From: Pedobacter sp.
GTDB taxonomy: Bacteria; Desulfobacterota; Desulfuromonadia; Desulfuromonadales; Syntrophotaleaceae
DNA length: 64,000 bases
Direction: 5' to 3'
Assembly (NCBI GenBank): GCA_050253415.1
Contig: JBFWJC010000002.1
Location: 224,001-288,000 of the forward strand
The translations under genes were made by a program, and so were the position numbers. Under the pieces are notes generated by a model. It had not been told where the DNA came from and did not search any database. It saw nothing but the letters and a program-made list of their open reading frames with translations. Shown here in pieces: positions 37,870 through 46,152 of the stretch (within the stretch, counting starts at the first letter, position 1; each line of letters starts with the position of its first letter).

Positions 37870-38030
37870 TTGACGAAATGGAGCTCTGACGTTAGTTTAG
37901 TGCGCGCTTATGAAATTGTATTACCTCGGGTATTTCTGATGTTCAGAGGATGGGGTGATTGTGCGAGGACTAAACGATTAACTTTAAAAGACCGCTCGAT
38001 GCCTGTGAGGCGTGGGTGGTCTTTTTGTTT
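37870..38030 (+). promoter_or_regulatory. Sigma70 promoter + short leader ORF + terminator hairpin (attenuator-like leader 2)
   Basis: TTGACG-17-TAGTTT; ATG at 37910 (MKLYYLGYF*); GACCGCTCG...GGGTGGTC followed by a T-run. Confidence 0.55.
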
Positions 38031-38041
38031 ATGGGGAAGAC

Positions 38042-38812
38042 ATGAGTTATCTACTTGTTTTAGGGGTTATATTCGTAGCCTTTGCGTTTATGGCGGCGCG
38101 CTTGAAGAAGCACTCTGCAAGTTCGTCGGAAGGTGTGCCCTATGAACCCCGGCAGGAATTATTCAGTCCGGCGGAGCGCTCCTTCTTCGGAGTTTTGGAG
38201 CAGGCGGTTGCCGGCCAGTTTCGCGTTATGGGCAAAATCCGCCTGGGGGATCTGATCCAGCCGGCCAAAGGTTTCTCGCACAGTCAACGCACCGGCGCCT
38301 GGAACCGCATTCACCAGAAACACGTCGACTTTGTCCTCTGTCAAACGGATACCCTGTCCGTAGCGGGGGTGGTGGAGCTGGACGATGCCTCCCATCAGCG
38401 TAAGGATCGAAGCGAACGGGATGCGTTTGTCGACAAAGTATTAAGCACCGCCGGTATTCCCATCGTGCATTTTACGGCACGCAAGGGCTATTCGATGCAG
38501 GAGGTTACGGCAAAGTTGAATGAGGTGCTTTCTCTACGTTTGGAGGCATGCGAACCGTTGGTTTTGTCGGTTGTCGCTCAAGAGGAGCAGGCATTGGTGG
38601 AAGAAGTTGCAGAGGCGGTGGTTGAGATTGTCGCTGAAAAGGAGTCTATTGAAATATCGCTTGATCAAGCAATGGAGCAGGGAGTTCCAATGTGTCCTGC
38701 CTGTAGTTCACCAATGCTTAAACGGCAGGCCAAAAAAGGGCCGAATGCCGGAAAATATTTTTGGGCGTGTTCGGCATTTCCGAAGTGTCGGAAGATTCAA
38801 GTTCTTGGGTAA
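38042..38812 (+). CDS. Membrane-anchored DUF2726 protein with C-terminal topoisomerase-type C4 zinc ribbon
   Basis: N-terminal TM, SPAERSF, KHVDFVLC, VELDDASH, CPACSSPM...FWACSAFPKC. Confidence 0.88.
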   Translation: MSYLLVLGVIFVAFAFMAARLKKHSASSSEGVPYEPRQELFSPAERSFFGVLEQAVAGQFRVMGKIRLGDLIQPAKGFSHSQRTGAWNRIHQKHVDFVLCQTDTLSVAGVVELDDASHQRKDRSERDAFVDKVLSTAGIPIVHFTARKGYSMQEVTAKLNEVLSLRLEACEPLVLSVVAQEEQALVEEVAEAVVEIVAEKESIEISLDQAMEQGVPMCPACSSPMLKRQAKKGPNAGKYFWACSAFPKCRKIQVLG

Positions 38813-39025
38813 GCAGGTTTATTTCTGAGATTTGGTTGCGAAATTGGCCTTTTAAAGCACTAAAGCAAGAACGATATATTGTATTTCAATGAGAGGTTAA
38901 AGCCCCGGAAACCCATAATTCACGCAAAATTTGTGATCTGTTCTTTTTTTATATATGCACTGGTCCTACTTTACTTAAGTCTCTATGAACCGACTCAGAA
39001 GAAACTCAAAAAACAGGAGTGGGAA

Positions 39026-39514
39026 ATGAGTGATATGATCAAAAATGTTTTCATAAGCCATCACCATAAAGATGATTCTAGTGTTGATGGTCTTACTGGT
39101 ATGCTTTCTGGCAAGGGATATCTTTTGAGGAATAGCTCTATTAGAGTTAAACCCAACAACCAAGTCCGACTTGATCAAAAAAAAGTTAGCGACCGCACAA
39201 TAGAGCGCCTTCTCAGGATGAAAATGAAGTGGGCTGGTCAATTAATTGTTGTTATTGGCAAAGAGACGCATAAAAGACCATGGGTGGATTGGGAAATTAA
39301 AGTTGCCCATCGACTTGGAAAGCCAATTATTGGTGTTTACGAAAACGGGCTAAAAGACGAGGTAGAAATTCCTGAAAATTTAAAGAATTATGCAACCTCA
39401 ATCGTTGGTTGGAGGTCTGAATCTATAATAAGTGCACTAAATGGTGAGGGTCAATTCCTAAACCCTGATGGGTCACCCTGTCAGAAAAAGGACGGGGGCT
39501 ATGTAACATGTTGA
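39026..39514 (+). CDS. TIR-domain protein (ThsB/MTH538-like)
   Basis: NVFISH, LIVVIGKETHKRPWVDWEI with catalytic Glu, KPIIGV; AGGAG RBS. Confidence 0.88.
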   Translation: MSDMIKNVFISHHHKDDSSVDGLTGMLSGKGYLLRNSSIRVKPNNQVRLDQKKVSDRTIERLLRMKMKWAGQLIVVIGKETHKRPWVDWEIKVAHRLGKPIIGVYENGLKDEVEIPENLKNYATSIVGWRSESIISALNGEGQFLNPDGSPCQKKDGGYVTC

Positions 39515-40170
39515 TTGAACAAGACTCTTATTTGTATGCATATTCAATAACTAGAGACTTTGGCTTTGCGCCAAATCCGTTTCATGGCATCTGTACGCTG
39601 GCTACGTGTAAACCAGGTATCCGTAAAAGTGCTAATGTCGGGGACTGGGTCTTGGGTGTTGGAGGCAGCAAAATGCGGGACGCATCAAGGAAGTGTATAC
39701 TTCTTATGAAAATTACAAAGAAAATAAGCTTCCAAGAATATTGGGAAGATCCCAGTTACTCAATTAAAAAGTCTCTGCGCAACGGCAGTCGGGTTCGAAT
39801 GCTAGGCGACAACATTTACCACAAAGAGAGTAACGCGAATTGGGTTCAAGAAGACTCTCATCATAGTTGTCCGGATGGGACCATAAACCATGTAAATTTG
39901 GCTCGAGATACTAAGTCTGATAACGTTTTAATTTCAAATTATTTCCTGTATTTCGGTGATGCCGCAATCCCGCTTGATTTGCACTCAATTGGATATCATC
40001 GTATACGGGACTTCAAAAAGATCAAACTAACTTTAGGCAACAAGGGTAGAAACTTAATTGAGTCAGTTGTAAATGCACATCGCGGAAAGTTGAATATGGT
40101 AATTTCAGACCCCTGTCAGTTCAAGGATTCCCATAAACGAGTTGACCAAGCTACCGGAAAAATTTCATAG
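39508..40170 (+). CDS. Nmad2 (nucleotide-modification-associated domain 2) protein
   Basis: Y.I.RDFGFAPNPFHGICTLATCKPGIR, GDWV.G, GDNIY, VLIS..F.YFG. Confidence 0.82.
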   Translation: MLIEQDSYLYAYSITRDFGFAPNPFHGICTLATCKPGIRKSANVGDWVLGVGGSKMRDASRKCILLMKITKKISFQEYWEDPSYSIKKSLRNGSRVRMLGDNIYHKESNANWVQEDSHHSCPDGTINHVNLARDTKSDNVLISNYFLYFGDAAIPLDLHSIGYHRIRDFKKIKLTLGNKGRNLIESVVNAHRGKLNMVISDPCQFKDSHKRVDQATGKIS

Positions 40171-40181
40171 GAGGTAAAGAT

Positions 40182-40735
40182 TTGTCAACCGTTCTCAGAA
40201 AATTTTCATTTCACACTTTAAAGATGATGGTGATGAAGTCGAAGCATTTACCAACTACTTCGCCAACACGCATTCCGTCTTTATTCCAAAGGTCTTGGAG
40301 GTGAATGACAATGATGATTTCATAAACAGAGACGACAAAGACTACGTCATGAGTCGCATCCGTGAGAAGTACTTGCAGGACAGCACAGAGACTATCGTCC
40401 TTTTAGGTAGTTGTACCCACAGCAGACGTTATGTTGACTTGGAGGTCAAAAGTTCACTCAGGGTCGGCCATTTCATTCCCAATGGCCTCATGGGGATTGC
40501 TCTTCCAAGTCGAAACAATCTTGCCCATTTGTCGCCAAGGCTTAAGGCTAATTGGAACTCTGACCATCACAACTGCTATTCTAGGTATTTGTCTTATCCA
40601 GGCTCTCCTGTTGAACTTGTAAGTTGGATCGAGGACGCCTATCTTGCGAGGACATCGTGTGCGCATTTGATTGCAAACACAAAAGATATGATGAGAAACA
40701 AAGGTAAGTGTAAAATTTGCGGGGTGACACACTAA
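40182..40735 (+). pseudogene. Second ThsB-like TIR gene with a -1 frameshift near codon 7
   Basis: AGGAGGT RBS + TTG at 40182 reads MSTVLRK; KIFISH...IREKYLQDS..TIVLLG..T.SRRYVDLE continues in the -1 frame from the A-run at 40199-40202. Confidence 0.75.
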
Positions 40736-42783
40736 TGCTTGCTCGATATCAACCACCACTGGCTGTTCACTTTGTTTGGCATCCATCAGACAAGGATTCA
40801 GTTGACCCAATTCTTGGGAGTGTCTTCAAGTATTTTTCGAGAGATGTTGATCGGCCGTTTTCACGGAACCTGAATATCCCCTTGTTTCTGTATAGCTCCA
40901 ACTACCCGACAATTGGGCCGAGCGATTTCCCCCAGGAGCTCGCAACGCGAAATGTCCTATTCATTTTTACTAGCATTAATACAAGAGGGTATGACTCATG
41001 GAACGACTACATTCGGAAGCTTCCGTGTTCAGACCTGTTGAGGGTTGTCCCGGTGGCCTTAAGCCATGAAGGGCTTCGGCATGGGGGGGAGGGAATTCTC
41101 AAGGGTCTCAATTTTATCCGGGCATTTGAATGGCCCGAGAAGTCTATGCCACAACATGCATTCCTCGCCATGGCGCATGAGGTTTACCGCCATGGATTTG
41201 TTGAAATCGAAGAGGGTGACAAAGGCAAGTCGTCATCCATTAAAATTTTCCTTAGCCATGCAAAAAACGGGGACACTGGTCGCCTTCATGCAGAATCCAT
41301 CAAGCGCTTTATTGAGAACACGAACATCTCTCACTTTTTTGACGCGACAGAGATATCGCCGGGGTTCAAGTTTGATGATGAGATAATTGAGCACATCAAA
41401 GAGTCAACGGTTGTGGCAATTAGTAGCGATGCCTATTCCTCTCGATATTGGTGTCAGAGAGAAATCTTGTGCGCCAAAGAGTTTCACAAGCCAATGATAG
41501 CTGTTGACTGCTTGGAGGATTATGAAGACAGGATTTTTCCAGCCGGGTCAAATGTGCCATGCGTTCATGTGTCGCCGGAATCACCAATCAGCGAATCTGA
41601 CATCTTAAGAGTTCTCACCGCTGCAATTTTGGAAACTATTCGACATCACCATGCTCTTAAGTCGCTTGAGCACTATCAGTCCAGAGGGTGGATTGGTAAT
41701 GATTGCGTCCTTGTCTCTCGGCCTCCAGAAATTCGCCAAATTCTCGCGCTGAAGGAGGGGGGGGGTAGCCAGATTTGCTACCCAGAGCCCCCGATATATT
41801 CTGAGGAAGCAGATTGGCATCGTCAGCTTGAAATTGATACTTTCACTCCGCTTTGGAGTAGGGCTGAAAATCTCTCTTTTAGAGGCTTGCGAGTCGGCAT
41901 TTCCATATCAGATGTTACTAGTGAGGGATTTAGTGATAATCATCTTCCTGCAAGTCAATCAACAAGACTGGCTCAAGATCTTGCACGACATCTTCTTGCC
42001 AGATCTGCCACGCTGATATATGGGGGTGACTTGCGCAAGAATGGGTTCACCGAATTCATTTTTGACGAAGCGATTGCGCTTAAAAGTCGTCTTGACACAG
42101 ATGGTGTTTATGTTGAGAACCACCTGGCTTGGCCGATTCACAAAGCTGATAGGGAAATGACTGCTTGGCGAGCGGATTATAGAGAGGTCATGAAAACCGT
42201 AGAGAATAGCATCCCTAGCGATATCTCTAGCAATGTCGACAAAGAAAATTATCTTTCCCCGTCAACGCCTCGGAACAAGTATTTCTGGTCTCGCTGCCTT
42301 ACGGAGATGCGGCTAAATTCTATTGATTCCTCGCATGCACGTATCTGTGTAGGTGGAAAACTATTCGGATACAACGGAAAAATGCCAGGTGTCTTGGAGG
42401 AAATTCTCATCGCAATTAGTAAGAAGAAGCCCATCTACTTGTTGGGAGCTTTTGGTGGAGTTGTTGGCGAGGTTTGCAAGGTGCTTCGTAATGAACCATA
42501 CCCAGATTCGCTAACTGAGGCATGGCAGGTCACTCATAATGCCGGCTACGTTGATCTTCAAGCGATTGCACGAGAACATGGTATGCACGCAGATTATGAA
42601 CAGGGAAAGGTAGCCCTTTCAGGTATAGAAATCCACATGCTGTCGGAAAATGCAGGTCTAGAAGAAGATACTTATTTGCGGCTGATGGAAACTCCTTTTG
42701 TAGATGAATGTATTCATCTGGTCATGCAAGGCTTGAAGAAGATCTCGTCAAAGATGAACAGAAAGGAGGGGATTGAAGCGTGA
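40735..42783 (+). CDS. TIR + SLOG (cluster-2/LD-type) fusion protein
   Basis: Central TIR IFLSHAK..FFD..YSSRYWCQRE; C-terminal SLOG VGISIS, IYGGDLR, LTEMR, ARICVGGK, MPGVLEE, KPIYLLGAFGG; TAATG coupling to the upstream gene. Confidence 0.85.
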   Translation: MLARYQPPLAVHFVWHPSDKDSVDPILGSVFKYFSRDVDRPFSRNLNIPLFLYSSNYPTIGPSDFPQELATRNVLFIFTSINTRGYDSWNDYIRKLPCSDLLRVVPVALSHEGLRHGGEGILKGLNFIRAFEWPEKSMPQHAFLAMAHEVYRHGFVEIEEGDKGKSSSIKIFLSHAKNGDTGRLHAESIKRFIENTNISHFFDATEISPGFKFDDEIIEHIKESTVVAISSDAYSSRYWCQREILCAKEFHKPMIAVDCLEDYEDRIFPAGSNVPCVHVSPESPISESDILRVLTAAILETIRHHHALKSLEHYQSRGWIGNDCVLVSRPPEIRQILALKEGGGSQICYPEPPIYSEEADWHRQLEIDTFTPLWSRAENLSFRGLRVGISISDVTSEGFSDNHLPASQSTRLAQDLARHLLARSATLIYGGDLRKNGFTEFIFDEAIALKSRLDTDGVYVENHLAWPIHKADREMTAWRADYREVMKTVENSIPSDISSNVDKENYLSPSTPRNKYFWSRCLTEMRLNSIDSSHARICVGGKLFGYNGKMPGVLEEILIAISKKKPIYLLGAFGGVVGEVCKVLRNEPYPDSLTEAWQVTHNAGYVDLQAIAREHGMHADYEQGKVALSGIEIHMLSENAGLEEDTYLRLMETPFVDECIHLVMQGLKKISSKMNRKEGIEA

Positions 42784-43130
42784 TTCCTAATGCACTGAAA
42801 GTTGGCCGGAAGAGGGGTAAATTTGGCGAGGTTATGAAAAATGCGAACTTGGCACTACGGGTCGCCCACAAAATCAAACAATTCTCAAAATGCTACATTG
42901 TAAATGATTCTGTGTAAACTGCCTGCCGATCAAAGTATCGGTATTCGATCTTTAAAAATGATCCCAATTTGATCCCGGGATGATTTCTATTTACAGATCG
43001 GCATAGTCCCTTTTTCAAGATGTTCAGCTAAAGGAAATTGTCTGTATGGCATCTGCGTTAAAATTTAGTTATCGAAGGACCAAAGGAGAGTGTGGGGGAC
43101 TGATAGCTCACATAAAGAAGGAAATTGCAG

Positions 43131-44828
43131 ATGCAAAAGAATAACGAGGGAATTTTAACGGGGAAATTATTTGTATTTGAAGGGCCAGATGGTGTTGGTA
43201 AAAGCACTTTAGTTGAGTATGTTTGCAGGGCTTTGAAGACTGATGGTGTGCAAGTTTTAACCTTGAGTTTTCCGGGCCGTTCTCGGGGATCATTAGGCGA
43301 ATTGGTTTACCGACTTCATCATGACTCTGGTCAGTTTTGTATTGATAAAATCAATAAATCAAGCCTCCAAGTGCTACATGTCGCAGCCCATATTGACTGT
43401 ATTGAAAGAGTGATTTTACCTGCTTTAAAAAGGGGGATGACTGTAGTTCTTGACAGATTTTGGTGGTCAACTGTTGTTTATGGCACAGCAACTGGAGTAC
43501 CGAAAGAAATATTAGACGCCCTTGTGCGCCTGGAGGAGGTTGCATGGGGCGGGCGTAAACCCGATATGGCTTTTTTGGTCTCAAGAGATAAGCCATTTAG
43601 GGAAGAATTATCGTTGAAAAAGTGGGAGGTAGTTTGTGATCAATATAAGAATTTGTTCGATACTCAAAAAGATATTCATCCTGCCGAGATAATTGAAAAT
43701 AATTCCTCAATTGAAAATATTTCTAACCGAATTTATGAAAAAATGATTGGTAGTAGCAAACAACATTCTTTTGATTACGGAGATATACCGAAATATATCA
43801 ATGATAGAAAAACTTCATATTTAAACTTAACTCGCAACGTAACCTGGTTGCCAACTAAGACTACAGAGGTCTTCGATACATACTGGCGCTTTGCGGCTGA
43901 GAGGCAAGACATTTTTTTCCGCAGGGTAGAAAATACAATCGGTCCTTTTACAAACGACCCAATACTTAGGATTCATAAGTTCACAAACGCTTATAGGGCC
44001 TCAGATAGGGTAAGTCAATATCTAATTAAAAATGTAATTTATAATGGAGACCAGGATCCAAAAGAAGTATTCTTTAGAACAATACTGTTTAAGTTTTTTA
44101 ATAAAATAGAGACATGGGAAAAGTTAACGAATAAAATAGGAGACATTTGCTATAAAGACTTCAATTTTAAAATGTATGATGAAGTATTAACAAAGGAAAA
44201 GATGGTAAACAGTATATACTCTGCAGCTTATATCATGTCTTCAAGTGGGAAAAATATGCCTTTCAATGTAAAGCATAGAAACCATCTAAAGCTAATTGAA
44301 AGGATGATGGCTGAGGACTTACCTCTTAAAATTTGCGACGCAAAATCTTTACAACAAGTTTTCTATTTGCTGAGAGAATATCCAATGATTGGTGATTTTT
44401 TAGCGTTTCAATACGCAATTGATCTCAATTACAGCGCAATGATTAACTTTAGTGAAATGTCTTTTGTCGTTCCTGGACCTGGTGCTAAAGATGGTATGAG
44501 GAAATGTTTTTTAGATTATGGAGGGCGATCAGAGGTTGATTTGATAAAGTGCATGGCGGACCGTCAAGAGCAAGAGTTTGAACGCTTAGGTCTTTCTTTT
44601 AAAAGCTTATGGGGACGGCCGCTTCAACTTATTGATTGTCAAAATTTGTTTTGTGAGGTTGATAAGTACGCTCGAATTGCTCACCCTGACGTTTGCGGCC
44701 TTACTGGGAGGAAAAAGATTAAACAGAAATTCAGACCGATATATAAGCCTATTGAATATTTTTTCCCCCCTAAGTGGAATATTAATGAGGCAGTTAAAAA
44801 AAGTATTAAAATATCTAAAAAAGTTTAG
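43131..44828 (+). CDS. Fusion of thymidylate kinase-like domain and aGPT-Pplase1 (5-hmdU DNA kinase-like) domain
   Basis: N: FEGPDGVGKST, LDRFWWS; C: YWRFAAERQ.IF.RR, DPIL..HKFTNAYRASDRVSQY, GDFLAFQY.IDLNY, GPGA.DG, QNLFCEVDKY. Confidence 0.88.
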   Translation: MQKNNEGILTGKLFVFEGPDGVGKSTLVEYVCRALKTDGVQVLTLSFPGRSRGSLGELVYRLHHDSGQFCIDKINKSSLQVLHVAAHIDCIERVILPALKRGMTVVLDRFWWSTVVYGTATGVPKEILDALVRLEEVAWGGRKPDMAFLVSRDKPFREELSLKKWEVVCDQYKNLFDTQKDIHPAEIIENNSSIENISNRIYEKMIGSSKQHSFDYGDIPKYINDRKTSYLNLTRNVTWLPTKTTEVFDTYWRFAAERQDIFFRRVENTIGPFTNDPILRIHKFTNAYRASDRVSQYLIKNVIYNGDQDPKEVFFRTILFKFFNKIETWEKLTNKIGDICYKDFNFKMYDEVLTKEKMVNSIYSAAYIMSSSGKNMPFNVKHRNHLKLIERMMAEDLPLKICDAKSLQQVFYLLREYPMIGDFLAFQYAIDLNYSAMINFSEMSFVVPGPGAKDGMRKCFLDYGGRSEVDLIKCMADRQEQEFERLGLSFKSLWGRPLQLIDCQNLFCEVDKYARIAHPDVCGLTGRKKIKQKFRPIYKPIEYFFPPKWNINEAVKKSIKISKKV

Positions 44829-44846
44829 GGTGAGAAAAGAGGCGAA

Positions 44847-45872
44847 ATGGAATACCACCGACCACCGTACTTTTTAAGGGAATTAAAGCTAGAAGTAACC
44901 CACGATTGCAGGTTAGACTGCATTCATTGTTCTAGCATGGCACAGAGAATAACTCACAGAGAAATTCCCCTTGAGAGGTGTAAAGAGATTCTACGTGAGG
45001 CATCAACCCTCGGTGTCGTTGATGTAGCGTTTTCTGGTGGTGAGCCGTTGTTGTGGCAGGGGCTAACCGATGTGGTATCTCTCTCCTCCCATTTAGGGAT
45101 GAATGTTTCTTTGTATACCACTGGTAATGTTGACAGTAATGAATTAATTTTTTCAAGCTTAAAGTCAGCGGGGCTTGGTCGAGTCATGTTCAGTCTTTTT
45201 GGTGAGAATGCCAAGCTGCATGAGACAGTAACAAGGGTGAAAGGAAGTTATGAAGTTACTCTGGCAGCGATCAAGAAATGTATCGATTTTGACTTTGAGG
45301 TTGAACTTCATTTTGTACCGCTATCGGATAATTATTTAAGTTTAAGGAAAATTGCAGAGTTAGGAAAAGTGCTTGGTGTGAGTCGTTTGAGTGTTCTTAG
45401 GTTAGTTCCGCAAGGGCGTTGTGAGCTAAATGGCGTCAAGGCTTTAACAAAATCTCAAAACCTTGATTTGCGGAGATTGATAATTGGGCTTCGAGATCAG
45501 GGTTACGAGATCCGCACTGGCTCCCCCTTTAATGCCTTGATGTTGAGGGAAAAGCCACAATGCTGTTCAGGGATAGACAGATTGACAGTGTCTCCAGATT
45601 TAAAAATTTCCCCATGCGACGCCTTTAAACAAGTATCCTGTCAGTCGTTGGGTGTTGGAGATGAATACTCCTCATTGAATGGCAACACGCTCACAGAGTG
45701 TTGGGAAAAATCTCCATACCTTCAGCTTATTCGTAATTATTTGACAACACCCTTTGCAAATATATGTGCTGTTTGCCCCTCATTGGAAAACTGCCTTTCT
45801 GGATGTGTTGCCCAAAAATTTCATGCTTATGGAAATTTAGCTAAATGTCCAGATCCAATGTGTTTAATGTAA
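44847..45872 (+). CDS. Radical SAM/SPASM domain protein
   Basis: CRLDCIHC, SGGEP, SPASM Cys cluster (CCSG..PC..CAVC....NCLSGC..C...C). Confidence 0.9.
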   Translation: MEYHRPPYFLRELKLEVTHDCRLDCIHCSSMAQRITHREIPLERCKEILREASTLGVVDVAFSGGEPLLWQGLTDVVSLSSHLGMNVSLYTTGNVDSNELIFSSLKSAGLGRVMFSLFGENAKLHETVTRVKGSYEVTLAAIKKCIDFDFEVELHFVPLSDNYLSLRKIAELGKVLGVSRLSVLRLVPQGRCELNGVKALTKSQNLDLRRLIIGLRDQGYEIRTGSPFNALMLREKPQCCSGIDRLTVSPDLKISPCDAFKQVSCQSLGVGDEYSSLNGNTLTECWEKSPYLQLIRNYLTTPFANICAVCPSLENCLSGCVAQKFHAYGNLAKCPDPMCLM

Positions 45873-46030
45873 TTCGCTCTTGCCTATCAACAACGGGCAC
45901 CAAGTTAAACAATCCGTTTATTCAATGAGGGGATCGGGGCCGGATCTTTTCGCGAACAATCTCAAGGATATCCATTATAAGTAAAGAAAAGCCGGAAGAC
46001 AGTCTTCCTGATTGGCTAGCTGATTAGCTA

Positions 46031-46152
46031 GGGTCGGACCAAGGTAAGCAACTGATATTCCACAGAAATCATTGAAAAACACCGCCAAAAACAGGCTTAT
46101 AAGCCCCTTTTTGGGGTCAAAATGCGCCGGTTTAAGATATTTGGGGGCAATG
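46031..46152 (+). repeat. ~120-bp direct repeat, copy 1
   Basis: Near-identical to 47347-47469. Confidence 0.9.

Follow-up and report, generated by a model that had tools for sequence, protein, structure and literature searches.

The 64,000-nt window analysed here (positions 224,001 to 288,000 of contig JBFWJC010000002.1, assembly GCA_050253415.1) contains an AT-rich island of six genes, and with a probability of about 75% this island is a defence island related to DS-4, a defence system of Escherichia coli, with a Thoeris-like part. Three modules can be distinguished in it, and their combination is found again in many phyla of bacteria. The core pair consists of TIR1, a stand-alone TIR protein of the ThsB type, and Nmad2, which has a predicted PUA-like fold; the two are predicted to form a complex. 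A second, putatively nucleotide- or DNA-modifying module comprises a TMK-like kinase fused to an HMUDK helical domain (TMK::HMUDK) and a radical SAM enzyme. The third module appears to be Thoeris-like, with TIR-SLOG as the likely analogue of ThsA, and its own stand-alone TIR, TIR2, is probably broken here. That the three modules act as one system, a single horizontally acquired anti-phage locus, is the reading towards which we lean, if only to a modest degree. The new element is the linkage: across 160 compared loci, TIR1 and Nmad2 lie almost always beside a nucleotide module and, on long contigs, usually also beside a TIR/SLOG module. Our assessment is based on gene content, foreign origin, recurrent linkage, fold resemblance and a predicted interface, whereas protection against phages is documented solely for the relative DS-4.

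Results

DS-4 (working id NTTI) was validated as an E. coli defence system in the DefensePredictor study (Science 2026; PMC13092281, Tables S6-S8). According to these tables its genes encode a thymidylate-synthase-like (TS-like) protein of 361 aa, an adenylate-kinase-like deoxynucleoside monophosphate (dNMP) kinase of 185 aa, an HMUDK_hel protein of 340 aa, a ThsB_Global TIR of 163 aa and an Nmad2 protein of 220 aa (PMC13092281). The window contains the TIR-Nmad2 pair, HMUDK_hel and, in fused form, the P-loop kinase, and a TS-like gene is not part of the set. The DNA of TIR1 and Nmad2 is about 70% identical to that of the E. coli DS-4 TIR and Nmad2 genes. Because the part formed by TIR1, Nmad2, HMUDK and the kinase is a relative of DS-4, the island is not wholly undescribed, and the initial annotation, which had proposed an undescribed system, was not borne out in this respect, DS-4 having been validated in 2026 (PMC13092281).

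All six genes lie on the forward strand in the order TIR1, Nmad2, TIR2, TIR-SLOG, TMK::HMUDK and the radical SAM gene. This arrangement of six co-oriented, AT-rich genes had been listed in the initial annotation and was recovered in every item from open reading frames (ORFs), Pfam matches and GC content. The first four genes are tightly packed: TIR1 and Nmad2 overlap by 7 nt, 11 nt separate Nmad2 from TIR2, and TIR2 and TIR-SLOG overlap in TAATG. Between them and the second tight run, the sequence reads as an intergenic gap (42784..43130), previously put at about 350 bp, which measures 347 nt to the ATG at 43131 or 341 nt to the TTG at 43125. The gap showed no excess of promoters or terminators over shuffled sequence and no Rfam match.

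TIR1 (39026..39514, forward strand) matches Pfam ThsB_TIR (E = 5.1e-19) and, over its full length, the PADLOC ThsB model PDLC00418 (E = 5.6e-62). Glu90 of its WVDWE motif is invariant in 28 sequences. Its end overlaps by 7 nt the start of Nmad2 (39508..40170, forward strand; Pfam Nmad2, E = 9.4e-61), a predicted PUA-like protein of the YTH/ASCH/EVE type. An alignment of 29 Nmad2 sequences has 45 invariant columns, among them C29, C34, D46-W47, D101-N102, S117-H118-H119-S120 and D134, a pattern that would also fit a role as an enzyme. The AlphaFold2 (AF2) model built from this alignment reached a predicted local distance difference test (pLDDT) score of 87. In a structure search with VIA, the top 21 rows were all PUA-like, with Z scores of 4.2-7.8 over 103-142 aligned residues, all below the value of 8 under which the tool's own note calls a score not decisive. 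The matches include YTH, ASCH, EVE/THYN1 and McrB N-terminal domains, VcaM4I, the DrmA N-terminus, ASC1 and TRIP4, and PD-T4-3, which is specific for 5-hydroxymethylcytosine (5hmC), stands at rank 24. The prediction of a PUA-like fold is thus drawn from the uniformity of the list, not from the height of the Z scores. Many PUA-like domains bind modified bases in nucleic acids.

The complex prediction for TIR1 and Nmad2 scored 0.88, compared with 0.00 for the best of three controls; 116 of 157 solved complexes but only 2 of 215 mismatched pairs attain this mark, a calibration that is rough because custom alignments were used. The runs share at least 70% of their contacts, and the partners have pLDDT values of 86-90. 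In the predicted interface, the Nmad2 loop 90-98, which is disordered in the monomer model, meets the C-terminal third of TIR1. Since searches of the PDB returned no close solved relative of Nmad2, the result is unlikely to reproduce a remembered complex, and the modeling supports that TIR1 and Nmad2 bind each other. As a separate observation, the closest relative of Nmad2 (75% identity) is found in L084:5392-10138 (L-numbers denote compared loci and G-numbers compared genomes), where a TIR1-Nmad2-TIR2-TIR-SLOG block, which is probably transposon cargo, lies beside Tn7-like TnsC, TnsD/TniQ and TnsE genes.

The linkage of the modules was assessed in 80 genome loci seeded on TIR-SLOG, with 10-kb flanks, and in 80 metagenome loci seeded on Nmad2, the latter being the best 80 of 565 relatives among at least 598 pattern matches in metagenome contigs, many of which are short. 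Genes were labelled with profiles built from the window and the TIR-SLOG loci, and samples of these labels were confirmed by Pfam. Nmad2 occurs in 33 of the TIR-SLOG-seeded loci, directly preceded by TIR1 in 31 of them, and 30 of these 31 pairs are accompanied by a nucleotide-metabolism gene. Over all 80 loci, the gene counts are 14 for HMUDK, 10 for TS-like, 6 for dCTP-deaminase-like (DCD), 19 for MazG_C, 7 for TMK, 1 for dNMP kinase and 3 for radical SAM. Only three loci have a nucleotide gene without a called pair (one at a contig edge; L048; and L069, in which the ORF of TIR1 had been missed in calling), so the nucleotide genes go with TIR1 and Nmad2 and not with TIR-SLOG as such. In the Nmad2-seeded set, 75 loci received an Nmad2 label; TIR1 immediately precedes the gene in 62 of them, and in 7 more the gene lies at a contig edge. 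Of the 64 pairs called, 50 have a nucleotide gene and 21 a TIR-SLOG gene. Where at least 5 kb were available on each side of Nmad2, the nucleotide module was present in 15/15 loci and a SLOG gene (TIR-SLOG or a 390-aa TIR with LD_cluster3) in 13/15, or in 13/13 and 11/13 after removal of two near-duplicates.

Both sets together hold 34 loci in which Nmad2, a nucleotide gene and a SLOG gene form one co-directional run with gaps below 150 nt; they show 15 different gene orders, with TIR-SLOG in first, middle or last position. The two halves into which the initial annotation had divided the island, one of TIR/SLOG signalling and one of base modification, thus do co-occur elsewhere (30 of 31 pairs with a nucleotide gene and the 34 runs). 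The dividing line itself has to be moved, since TIR1 and Nmad2 are to be placed with the nucleotide module, as in DS-4. In 16 of the 33 Nmad2 loci, TIR-SLOG has no stand-alone TIR other than TIR1 beside it, and the same applies to the window, TIR2 being broken.

The nucleotide module varies among the relatives: it may consist of TS-like, kinase and HMUDK genes, of a dCTP-deaminase-like gene, of MazG or MazG_C with a UDG gene, or of a radical SAM gene with Nmad3. Judged by gene content, the last three of these variants point to uracil or 5-substituted-uracil chemistry in general and to no single compound. A radical SAM gene lies directly beside TIR1 and Nmad2 in L003/L128, L067, L119, L121 and L124. 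At L119:10786-12769, the gene following TIR1-Nmad2 encodes a radical SAM/SPASM protein and the next one Nmad3 (E = 8.8e-69), and in L121 the radical SAM gene is followed by that of a TIR-TPR protein. The commonest run is TIR1-Nmad2-(TIR2)-TIR-SLOG-MazG_C-UDG superfamily (e.g. L017:8273-13860 and L021:730-5819); it is present exactly in 15 loci, 9 without and 6 with TIR2, and in several partial versions, and the gene content of this sister variant points to uracil-in-DNA chemistry. In L094:9827-15054, L130:8303-10627 and L148:10639-13025, TIR-SLOG is replaced by a 390-aa TIR (PADLOC ThsB PDLC00434, E = 2.6e-119) and a 195-aa LD_cluster3 protein, and a patatin protein that contains an LD_cluster2 segment is additionally encoded in L094.

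Of 5,426 complete E. coli genomes, 16 contain DS-4, and these same 16 have a TIR/SLOG operon on the opposite strand at a distance of 2-6 kb. Since these genomes share an integrative and conjugative element (ICE), they are not independent. Besides two ThsB TIRs, the operon encodes a TIR protein of 400 aa and an LD_cluster2 protein of 279 aa, the latter pair representing a split TIR-SLOG, and it exists in two sequence variants with different genes between operon and DS-4. It also includes an unknown 251-aa protein (L083:12503-16433, likewise L082).

TIR-SLOG (40735..42783, forward strand, with an ORF that is also open from 40717) combines an N-terminal Rossmann-like domain with a TIR (TIR_2, E = 1.6e-8) and a SLOG domain (LD_cluster2, E = 2.5e-59). 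Its ATG overlaps the stop codon of TIR2 as TAATG. LD_cluster2 is the SLOG type in the DefenseFinder profile ThsA_new_grand, as listed in Table S5 of the DefensePredictor study (PMC13092281). The family of about 673 aa yielded 942 matches, the best 120 of which have 56-100% identity and come from many phyla; 180 columns are invariant, including Glu249 of the WCQRE motif (numbering of the 688-aa ORF from 40717). The AF2 model (pLDDT 78) places the Rossmann-like domain at approximately residues 10-165, followed by TIR and SLOG. Foldseek ranks ThsA chains first for this model, among them BcThsA with glycocyclic ADP-ribose (gcADPR) and an isolated SLOG domain with 3' cyclic ADP-ribose (3'cADPR) (E = 3.5e-6 to 3.5e-4), and then the SLOG domain of TRPM2. 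TIR-SLOG is therefore predicted to be a ThsA-like sensor-effector with TIR in the place of SIR2. As stated in the initial annotation, a Sir2- or Macro-type ThsA is missing: no SIR2 or Macro domain and no match to a PADLOC ThsA model was found in the seven proteins scanned with Pfam and PADLOC (six of the island and the DUF2726 protein of the flank). TIR1 and TIR-SLOG both retain the conserved Glu of the TIR motif, the signalling activity itself being only predicted. By gene neighbourhood, TIR2 and TIR-SLOG are a separable Thoeris-like module that also appears alone.

TIR2 (40182..40735, forward strand) is a ThsB-like TIR with a frameshift within 40197-40206. Its TTG start at 40182 is located 7 nt after GGAGG and reads MSTVLRK, and a single -1 shift follows, the frame that aligns with 14 homologues over the full length resuming one base back inside the AAAATTTT run. 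The ORF at 40295-40735 corresponds to the rear part of ThsB_TIR (E = 4.5e-11, profile positions 39-99), and its PADLOC ThsB matches are weaker than those of TIR1. The frameshift suspected in the initial annotation is real with respect to the homologues and identical in an independently built Logan contig. In addition, 13 close homologues of TIR2 share 62 invariant columns, at 7 of which TIR2 deviates, one change being a W to L exchange beside the conserved Glu; TIR2 is probably a decaying gene, i.e. a pseudogene. Changes at invariant columns number 0/18 in TIR1, 0/45 in Nmad2 and 1/180 in TIR-SLOG, whose sequences look constrained. A programmed frameshift or an alternative start of TIR2 was considered and rejected: no in-frame start is available except an ATT located 27 nt behind the Shine-Dalgarno sequence, and the additional substitutions favor decay.

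The TMK::HMUDK gene (43131..44828, forward strand, with an ORF that also opens at TTG 43125) encodes a TMK-like P-loop kinase (Thymidylate_kin, E = 7.7e-18) fused to the HMUDK helical domain of the 5-hydroxymethyldeoxyuridine DNA kinase type (HMUDK_hel, PF18723, E = 2.4e-110). Phage relatives match only residues 247-553, i.e. the helical domain, with at most 34% identity. In a quick tree, the HMUDK of the window groups with those of L174 and L121 (SH-aLRT 96), and L121 has TIR1 and Nmad2. The radical SAM gene (44847..45872, forward strand; Radical_SAM, E = 1.1e-16) starts 18 nt further downstream and encodes a CX3CX2C motif at residues 21-28 and a C-terminal Cys-rich region of SPASM type. Residues 13-339 align end to end with NCBIfam SPASM enzymes such as PqqE (E = 1.7e-30), although below every family cut-off, and the best PDB match is PqqE 6c8v (E = 2.5e-16). 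The radical SAM/SPASM assignment of the initial annotation is supported by the Radical_SAM match and the PqqE-like alignment, and the Pfam SPASM model gave no match at E <= 0.01. Orthologues at E <= 1e-60 were found in 0/400 other genomes of the class and in 1/239 of the order of G402. The reading as a prokaryotic viperin (pVip) was not favoured, as the PADLOC match (E = 4.8e-13, 47 bits) covers the shared radical SAM core only and the best matches are SPASM/PqqE proteins.

HMUDK and radical SAM genes also occur together in cassettes of the order helix-turn-helix (HTH), M78, X, HMUDK and radical SAM (L174:5011-9801, L176:6781-11532, L182:7903-12106 and L183:7908-12077), in which X measures 251-274 aa and TIR and Nmad2 are absent. 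The HTH protein matches PADLOC capH (E = 3.4e-12) and the M78 peptidase capP (E = 1.3e-13); domains were checked with Pfam and PADLOC for L174 and with Pfam for L176, where HMUDK is split and the radical SAM protein short (219 aa). Such cassettes may constitute a separate, undescribed defence system under DNA-damage-type regulators. The X proteins of L182 and L183 align with those of L174 and L176. Protein X (L174:6232-7047 and homologues) has GFPCLQQ and YGNYLGL motifs and no PDB match at E <= 0.1; an hhalign comparison with the TS-like profile gave E = 8.5e-4 at a probability of only 24%, with the Pro-Cys motifs in register, a hint that X could be a very divergent thymidylate-synthase-like enzyme.

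The island extends over approximately 38876..46030 (no strand assigned), its borders being taken from a drop in GC and a break of DNA matches in relatives. GC is 0.32-0.48 across 38.5-46.5 kb and 0.52-0.61 on both sides. In the 20 relatives searched, 6 of them of the same genus, DNA matches end at about 38875 and restart at about 46031; the island DNA is absent from them, the sole match inside being 68 nt long (E = 2.5e-4). The histidine-kinase and DUF2726 genes on the left and the PduL gene on the right have DNA matches in these relatives. The island is most likely foreign and horizontally acquired, to judge from composition and conservation. Relatives of its components are mobile-element cargo or neighbours of restriction systems, as seen for the E. 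coli ICE, the Tn7-like cargo of L084 and the type I restriction-modification system beside L086. A Logan contig of 12,933 nt, built independently at a depth of 50.6, is identical to the window over 39000-46000; since it may come from the same sample as the genome, it shows consistency and not independence. Run X2 covers parts of the island only, with the frameshift site outside its coverage, and run X3 covers none of it. A tRNA scan of 37.5-47.5 kb found no tRNA at the borders, a scan of 38.5-46.7 kb no Rfam match at E <= 0.1, and a promoter and terminator scan 12 promoter-type and 6 terminator-type sites, which is not above shuffled sequence. The DUF2726 protein just left of the island (38012-38812) has a C-terminal topoisomerase-type zinc ribbon; because its gene has 75-93% DNA identity in relatives, it is part of the flank and not a member of the island. 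At the right border, a sequence of about 110 nt (46031-46142) is present in multiple copies in related genomes, e.g. four in one contig of G003, and is neither a tRNA nor matched by Rfam.

Discussion

If the three modules act as one system, they could do so as follows. During infection, the nucleotide module would make or phosphorylate a 5-substituted deoxyuridine, either within DNA or in the pool of nucleotides, and Nmad2 would bind the modified base and thereby gate TIR1. TIR1 would in turn produce an NAD-derived signal, which the SLOG domain of TIR-SLOG would bind, activating the protein's own TIR NADase so that the infected cell is stopped. Phage HMUDKs have been described to phosphorylate 5-hydroxymethyldeoxyuridine (5-hmdU) in DNA (PMC5889632), and enzymatic phosphorylation of templates with 5-hydroxymethyluracil (5hmU) or 5hmC has been reported to turn off in vitro transcription (PMC6457204). 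The specific write-and-read chain, in which the module marks replicating DNA, Nmad2 and TIR1 read the mark and SLOG triggers NAD+ destruction, is a tentative proposal with a low probability. If it were true, this would be a bacterial immune system that chemically marks DNA and then reads its own mark, and DS-4 as cloned would be only a part of a three-module system. The latter could explain its weak phenotype, the only NTTI row of Table S7 listing phage lambda with a -log efficiency of plating of 0.93 and smaller plaques (PMC13092281).

Several observations weigh against a joint action of the three modules along this route. No TS-like gene was found among the island proteins, and a profile of 12 TS-like proteins taken from related loci found nothing genome-wide, although the scheme calls for a source of 5-hmdU. 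The 347-nt gap splits HMUDK and radical SAM from the run that extends from TIR1 to TIR-SLOG. Foldseek returned nothing for the Nmad2 model at E <= 0.001 (best E = 0.04), and the VIA scores of this model fall in the range that the tool regards as not decisive. In 47 of 80 loci, TIR-SLOG is not accompanied by Nmad2, and 39 of these have a stand-alone TIR beside it; DS-4 defends, if weakly, without a SLOG gene in the cloned unit, having been scored as a system of five genes (PMC13092281). The closest orthologues of the radical SAM protein (55-59% identity) directly follow (TMK::)HMUDK in L174 and L176, behind HTH/capH, M78/capP and X and with neither TIR1 nor Nmad2 in the stretch of flank covered; since the cassettes contain neither of the two, HMUDK and radical SAM can exist without the pair. 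When HMUDK_hel was sought in an unseeded sample of 400 further genomes from the phylum, four loci were detected in three genomes, none of them with TIR1 and Nmad2; two of these, L182 and L183, share the order and gene sizes of the cassettes and two are solitary. Finally, both locus sets were seeded, and defence genes cluster anyway, so that linkage need not mean one pathway.

Much of this would be expected if two or three independent defence systems lay side by side, with HMUDK and radical SAM as a self-contained cassette that has lost its capH/capP regulators and is not needed by TIR1-Nmad2 or by TIR2/TIR-SLOG. In all four loci examined, the nearest HMUDK-radical SAM pairs follow HTH, M78 and X genes and lack both TIR and Nmad2. 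The HMUDK of the window groups with that of L174, which comes from such a cassette, and the gap and the 39 loci with TIR-SLOG and a stand-alone TIR but no Nmad2 fit equally. Independence, which the initial annotation had named as an alternative, is a possibility to be taken seriously but on the doubtful side: the closest HMUDK-radical SAM pairs do lack TIR1 and Nmad2, but the modules are linked in 34 loci and interleaved in 15 gene orders. A nucleotide module accompanies TIR1 and Nmad2 in 30/31 and 50/64 loci, and HMUDK with radical SAM is the sole such module in the window, beside a pair that rarely lacks one. Radical SAM genes adjoin the pair directly in the five cases named above (L003/L128, L067, L119, L121 and L124), and the window has neither the regulators nor the X protein of the autonomous cassette.

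Other readings keep the genes together and change what the nucleotide module does. As proposed in outline in the initial annotation, the island might sense or attack phages with 5-hmdU, or with thymidines that stem from it, in their DNA, HMUDK phosphorylating the phage base, Nmad2 reading it and the TIRs answering. Phage HMUDKs do act on this base in DNA (PMC5889632). An HMUDK in an island and genome in which no TS-like gene was found would have to receive its only known substrate from outside, and Nmad2 is predicted to resemble readers of modified bases, some of them parts of modification-dependent nucleases (McrB-N, VcaM4I and PD-T4-3). Most relatives, on the other hand, carry TS-like, kinase, DCD or MazG genes of their own, which suggests a modified nucleotide made by the system itself, and the recorded DS-4 phenotype is against lambda. 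Lambda DNA contains ordinary T. We regard this reading as unlikely. Alternatively, the module could make a small-molecule signal or toxin instead of a DNA mark. The kinase and radical SAM enzymes would build a modified pyrimidine nucleotide or base, which TIR1 would join to ADP-ribose by base exchange or which would itself serve as a poison, and SLOG would read the product. TIR, SLOG and DrHyd have been grouped as one class that cleaves or exchanges nucleotide N-glycosidic bonds (PMC9503650), and Thoeris TIRs are described to make conjugates such as histidine-ADP-ribose (10.64898/2025.12.03.692087). BlsE, among the nearer solved relatives of the radical SAM protein, acts on a nucleoside, and some variants of the module consist of nucleotide-pool enzymes only (DCD, MazG). 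To our knowledge, the only known substrate of HMUDK is DNA. This substrate, the UDG-family genes in sister variants and the nearest predicted folds of Nmad2, which bind bases within nucleic acids, all argue for DNA, and make a small-molecule product distinctly improbable.

That the locus is a decaying remnant without current function is an outside chance. TIR2 is frameshifted and altered at 7/62 otherwise invariant columns, and the TS-like, DCD and regulator genes of relatives are missing from the window. The other five genes are intact, however, with 0/18, 0/45 and 1/180 changes in TIR1, Nmad2 and TIR-SLOG, and they retain the TIR Glu, the P-loop and CX3CX2C as putative catalytic motifs. A second stand-alone TIR is naturally absent from 16 of 33 loci, and radical SAM variants without a TS-like gene recur in L003/L128, L067 and L119.

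A three-module locus related to DS-4 matters for several reasons. Few validated defence systems employ enzymes whose other known role is in the hypermodification of phage DNA, and DS-4 is one of them. Some 100 relatives share a constant core of a TIR and a presumably PUA-like protein, predicted to form a complex, while their nucleotide enzymes are interchangeable (TS-like, HMUDK, dCTP-deaminase-like, MazG with UDG, or radical SAM). The TIR/SLOG module is a frequent third part, which is present in all 16 E. coli genomes with DS-4 and was left out when DS-4 was tested. Three predictions follow: DS-4 should become stronger once the TIR/SLOG operon next to it is added, a modified pyrimidine should be a ligand of Nmad2, and TIR1 and Nmad2 should co-purify.

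Comparison with known systems

As in DS-4, a ThsB-type TIR gene in the window lies directly upstream of Nmad2 and overlaps it, and HMUDK_hel and a P-loop nucleotide kinase are present in the locus. Unlike the window, DS-4 has a TS-like gene and a separate adenylate-kinase-like kinase of 185 aa, whereas in the window the kinase is TMK-like and fused to HMUDK and a radical SAM gene is added. The TIR/TIR-SLOG pair is located in the middle of the locus, in contrast to the TIR/SLOG operon of E. coli, which is encoded on the other strand and outside the cloned unit. The term DS-4 does not appear in the main text of the DefensePredictor study, so that no mechanism is offered there; its predicted, unvalidated systems feature MazG, MazG-C, dUTPase, aGPT-Pplase and an NMAD domain, and several of these are credited to a prediction by Burroughs et al. 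2015 (PMC13092281). In the literature on the gene set of Nmad2, TIR-SLOG and HMUDK, a single experimental study was found, DefensePredictor. A TIR-SLOG type may be among the 29 Thoeris types in the supplement of Yirmiya et al.

The phage pathways of thymidine hypermodification, as outlined for ViI, M6, SP10 and PhiW-14 (PMC5889632, PMC8989533), also include an HMUDK homologue and, in the M6 cluster, a radical SAM gene. The pairing of HMUDK with a TS-like protein of the dUMP hydroxymethylase type, part of these pathways, is seen in relatives of the island. Unlike the phage pathways, the island has no aGPT-Pplase (glycosylase-fold transferase), no pyridoxal phosphate (PLP) enzyme and no phage genes, and the radical SAM enzyme of M6 is described as spore-photoproduct-lyase-like while that of the island is PqqE/SPASM-like. 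The capH/capP cassettes differ in having HTH, M78 and X, in place of which the window has TIR1-Nmad2-TIR2-TIR-SLOG upstream.

Type I Thoeris pairs a ThsB TIR with a ThsA of SIR2-SLOG type, and in the window ThsB-family TIRs likewise adjoin a protein with a ThsA-like SLOG domain. Its effector domain, however, is TIR and not SIR2, an N-terminal Rossmann-like domain is added, and no PADLOC ThsA model matches. With respect to types I and II, a ThsB TIR is present (TIR1) and a SIR2-SLOG ThsA or Macro effector is absent. Yirmiya et al. 2025 distinguish Thoeris types I-XI, and the text of this work, as far as accessible, contains no Nmad, kinase or radical SAM term (10.64898/2025.12.03.692087). It reports that Thoeris TIRs make conjugates, e.g. 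His-ADPR, and characterizes type III by multiple TIR proteins, an effector that contains SLOG and a signal of unknown nature (10.64898/2025.12.03.692087). The NCBIfam model of the type III protein ThcB4 scored 19.7 bits, compared with a cut-off of 220. Measured against the one-sentence description of type III in that source, the TIR1, TIR2 and TIR-SLOG layout of the window fits.

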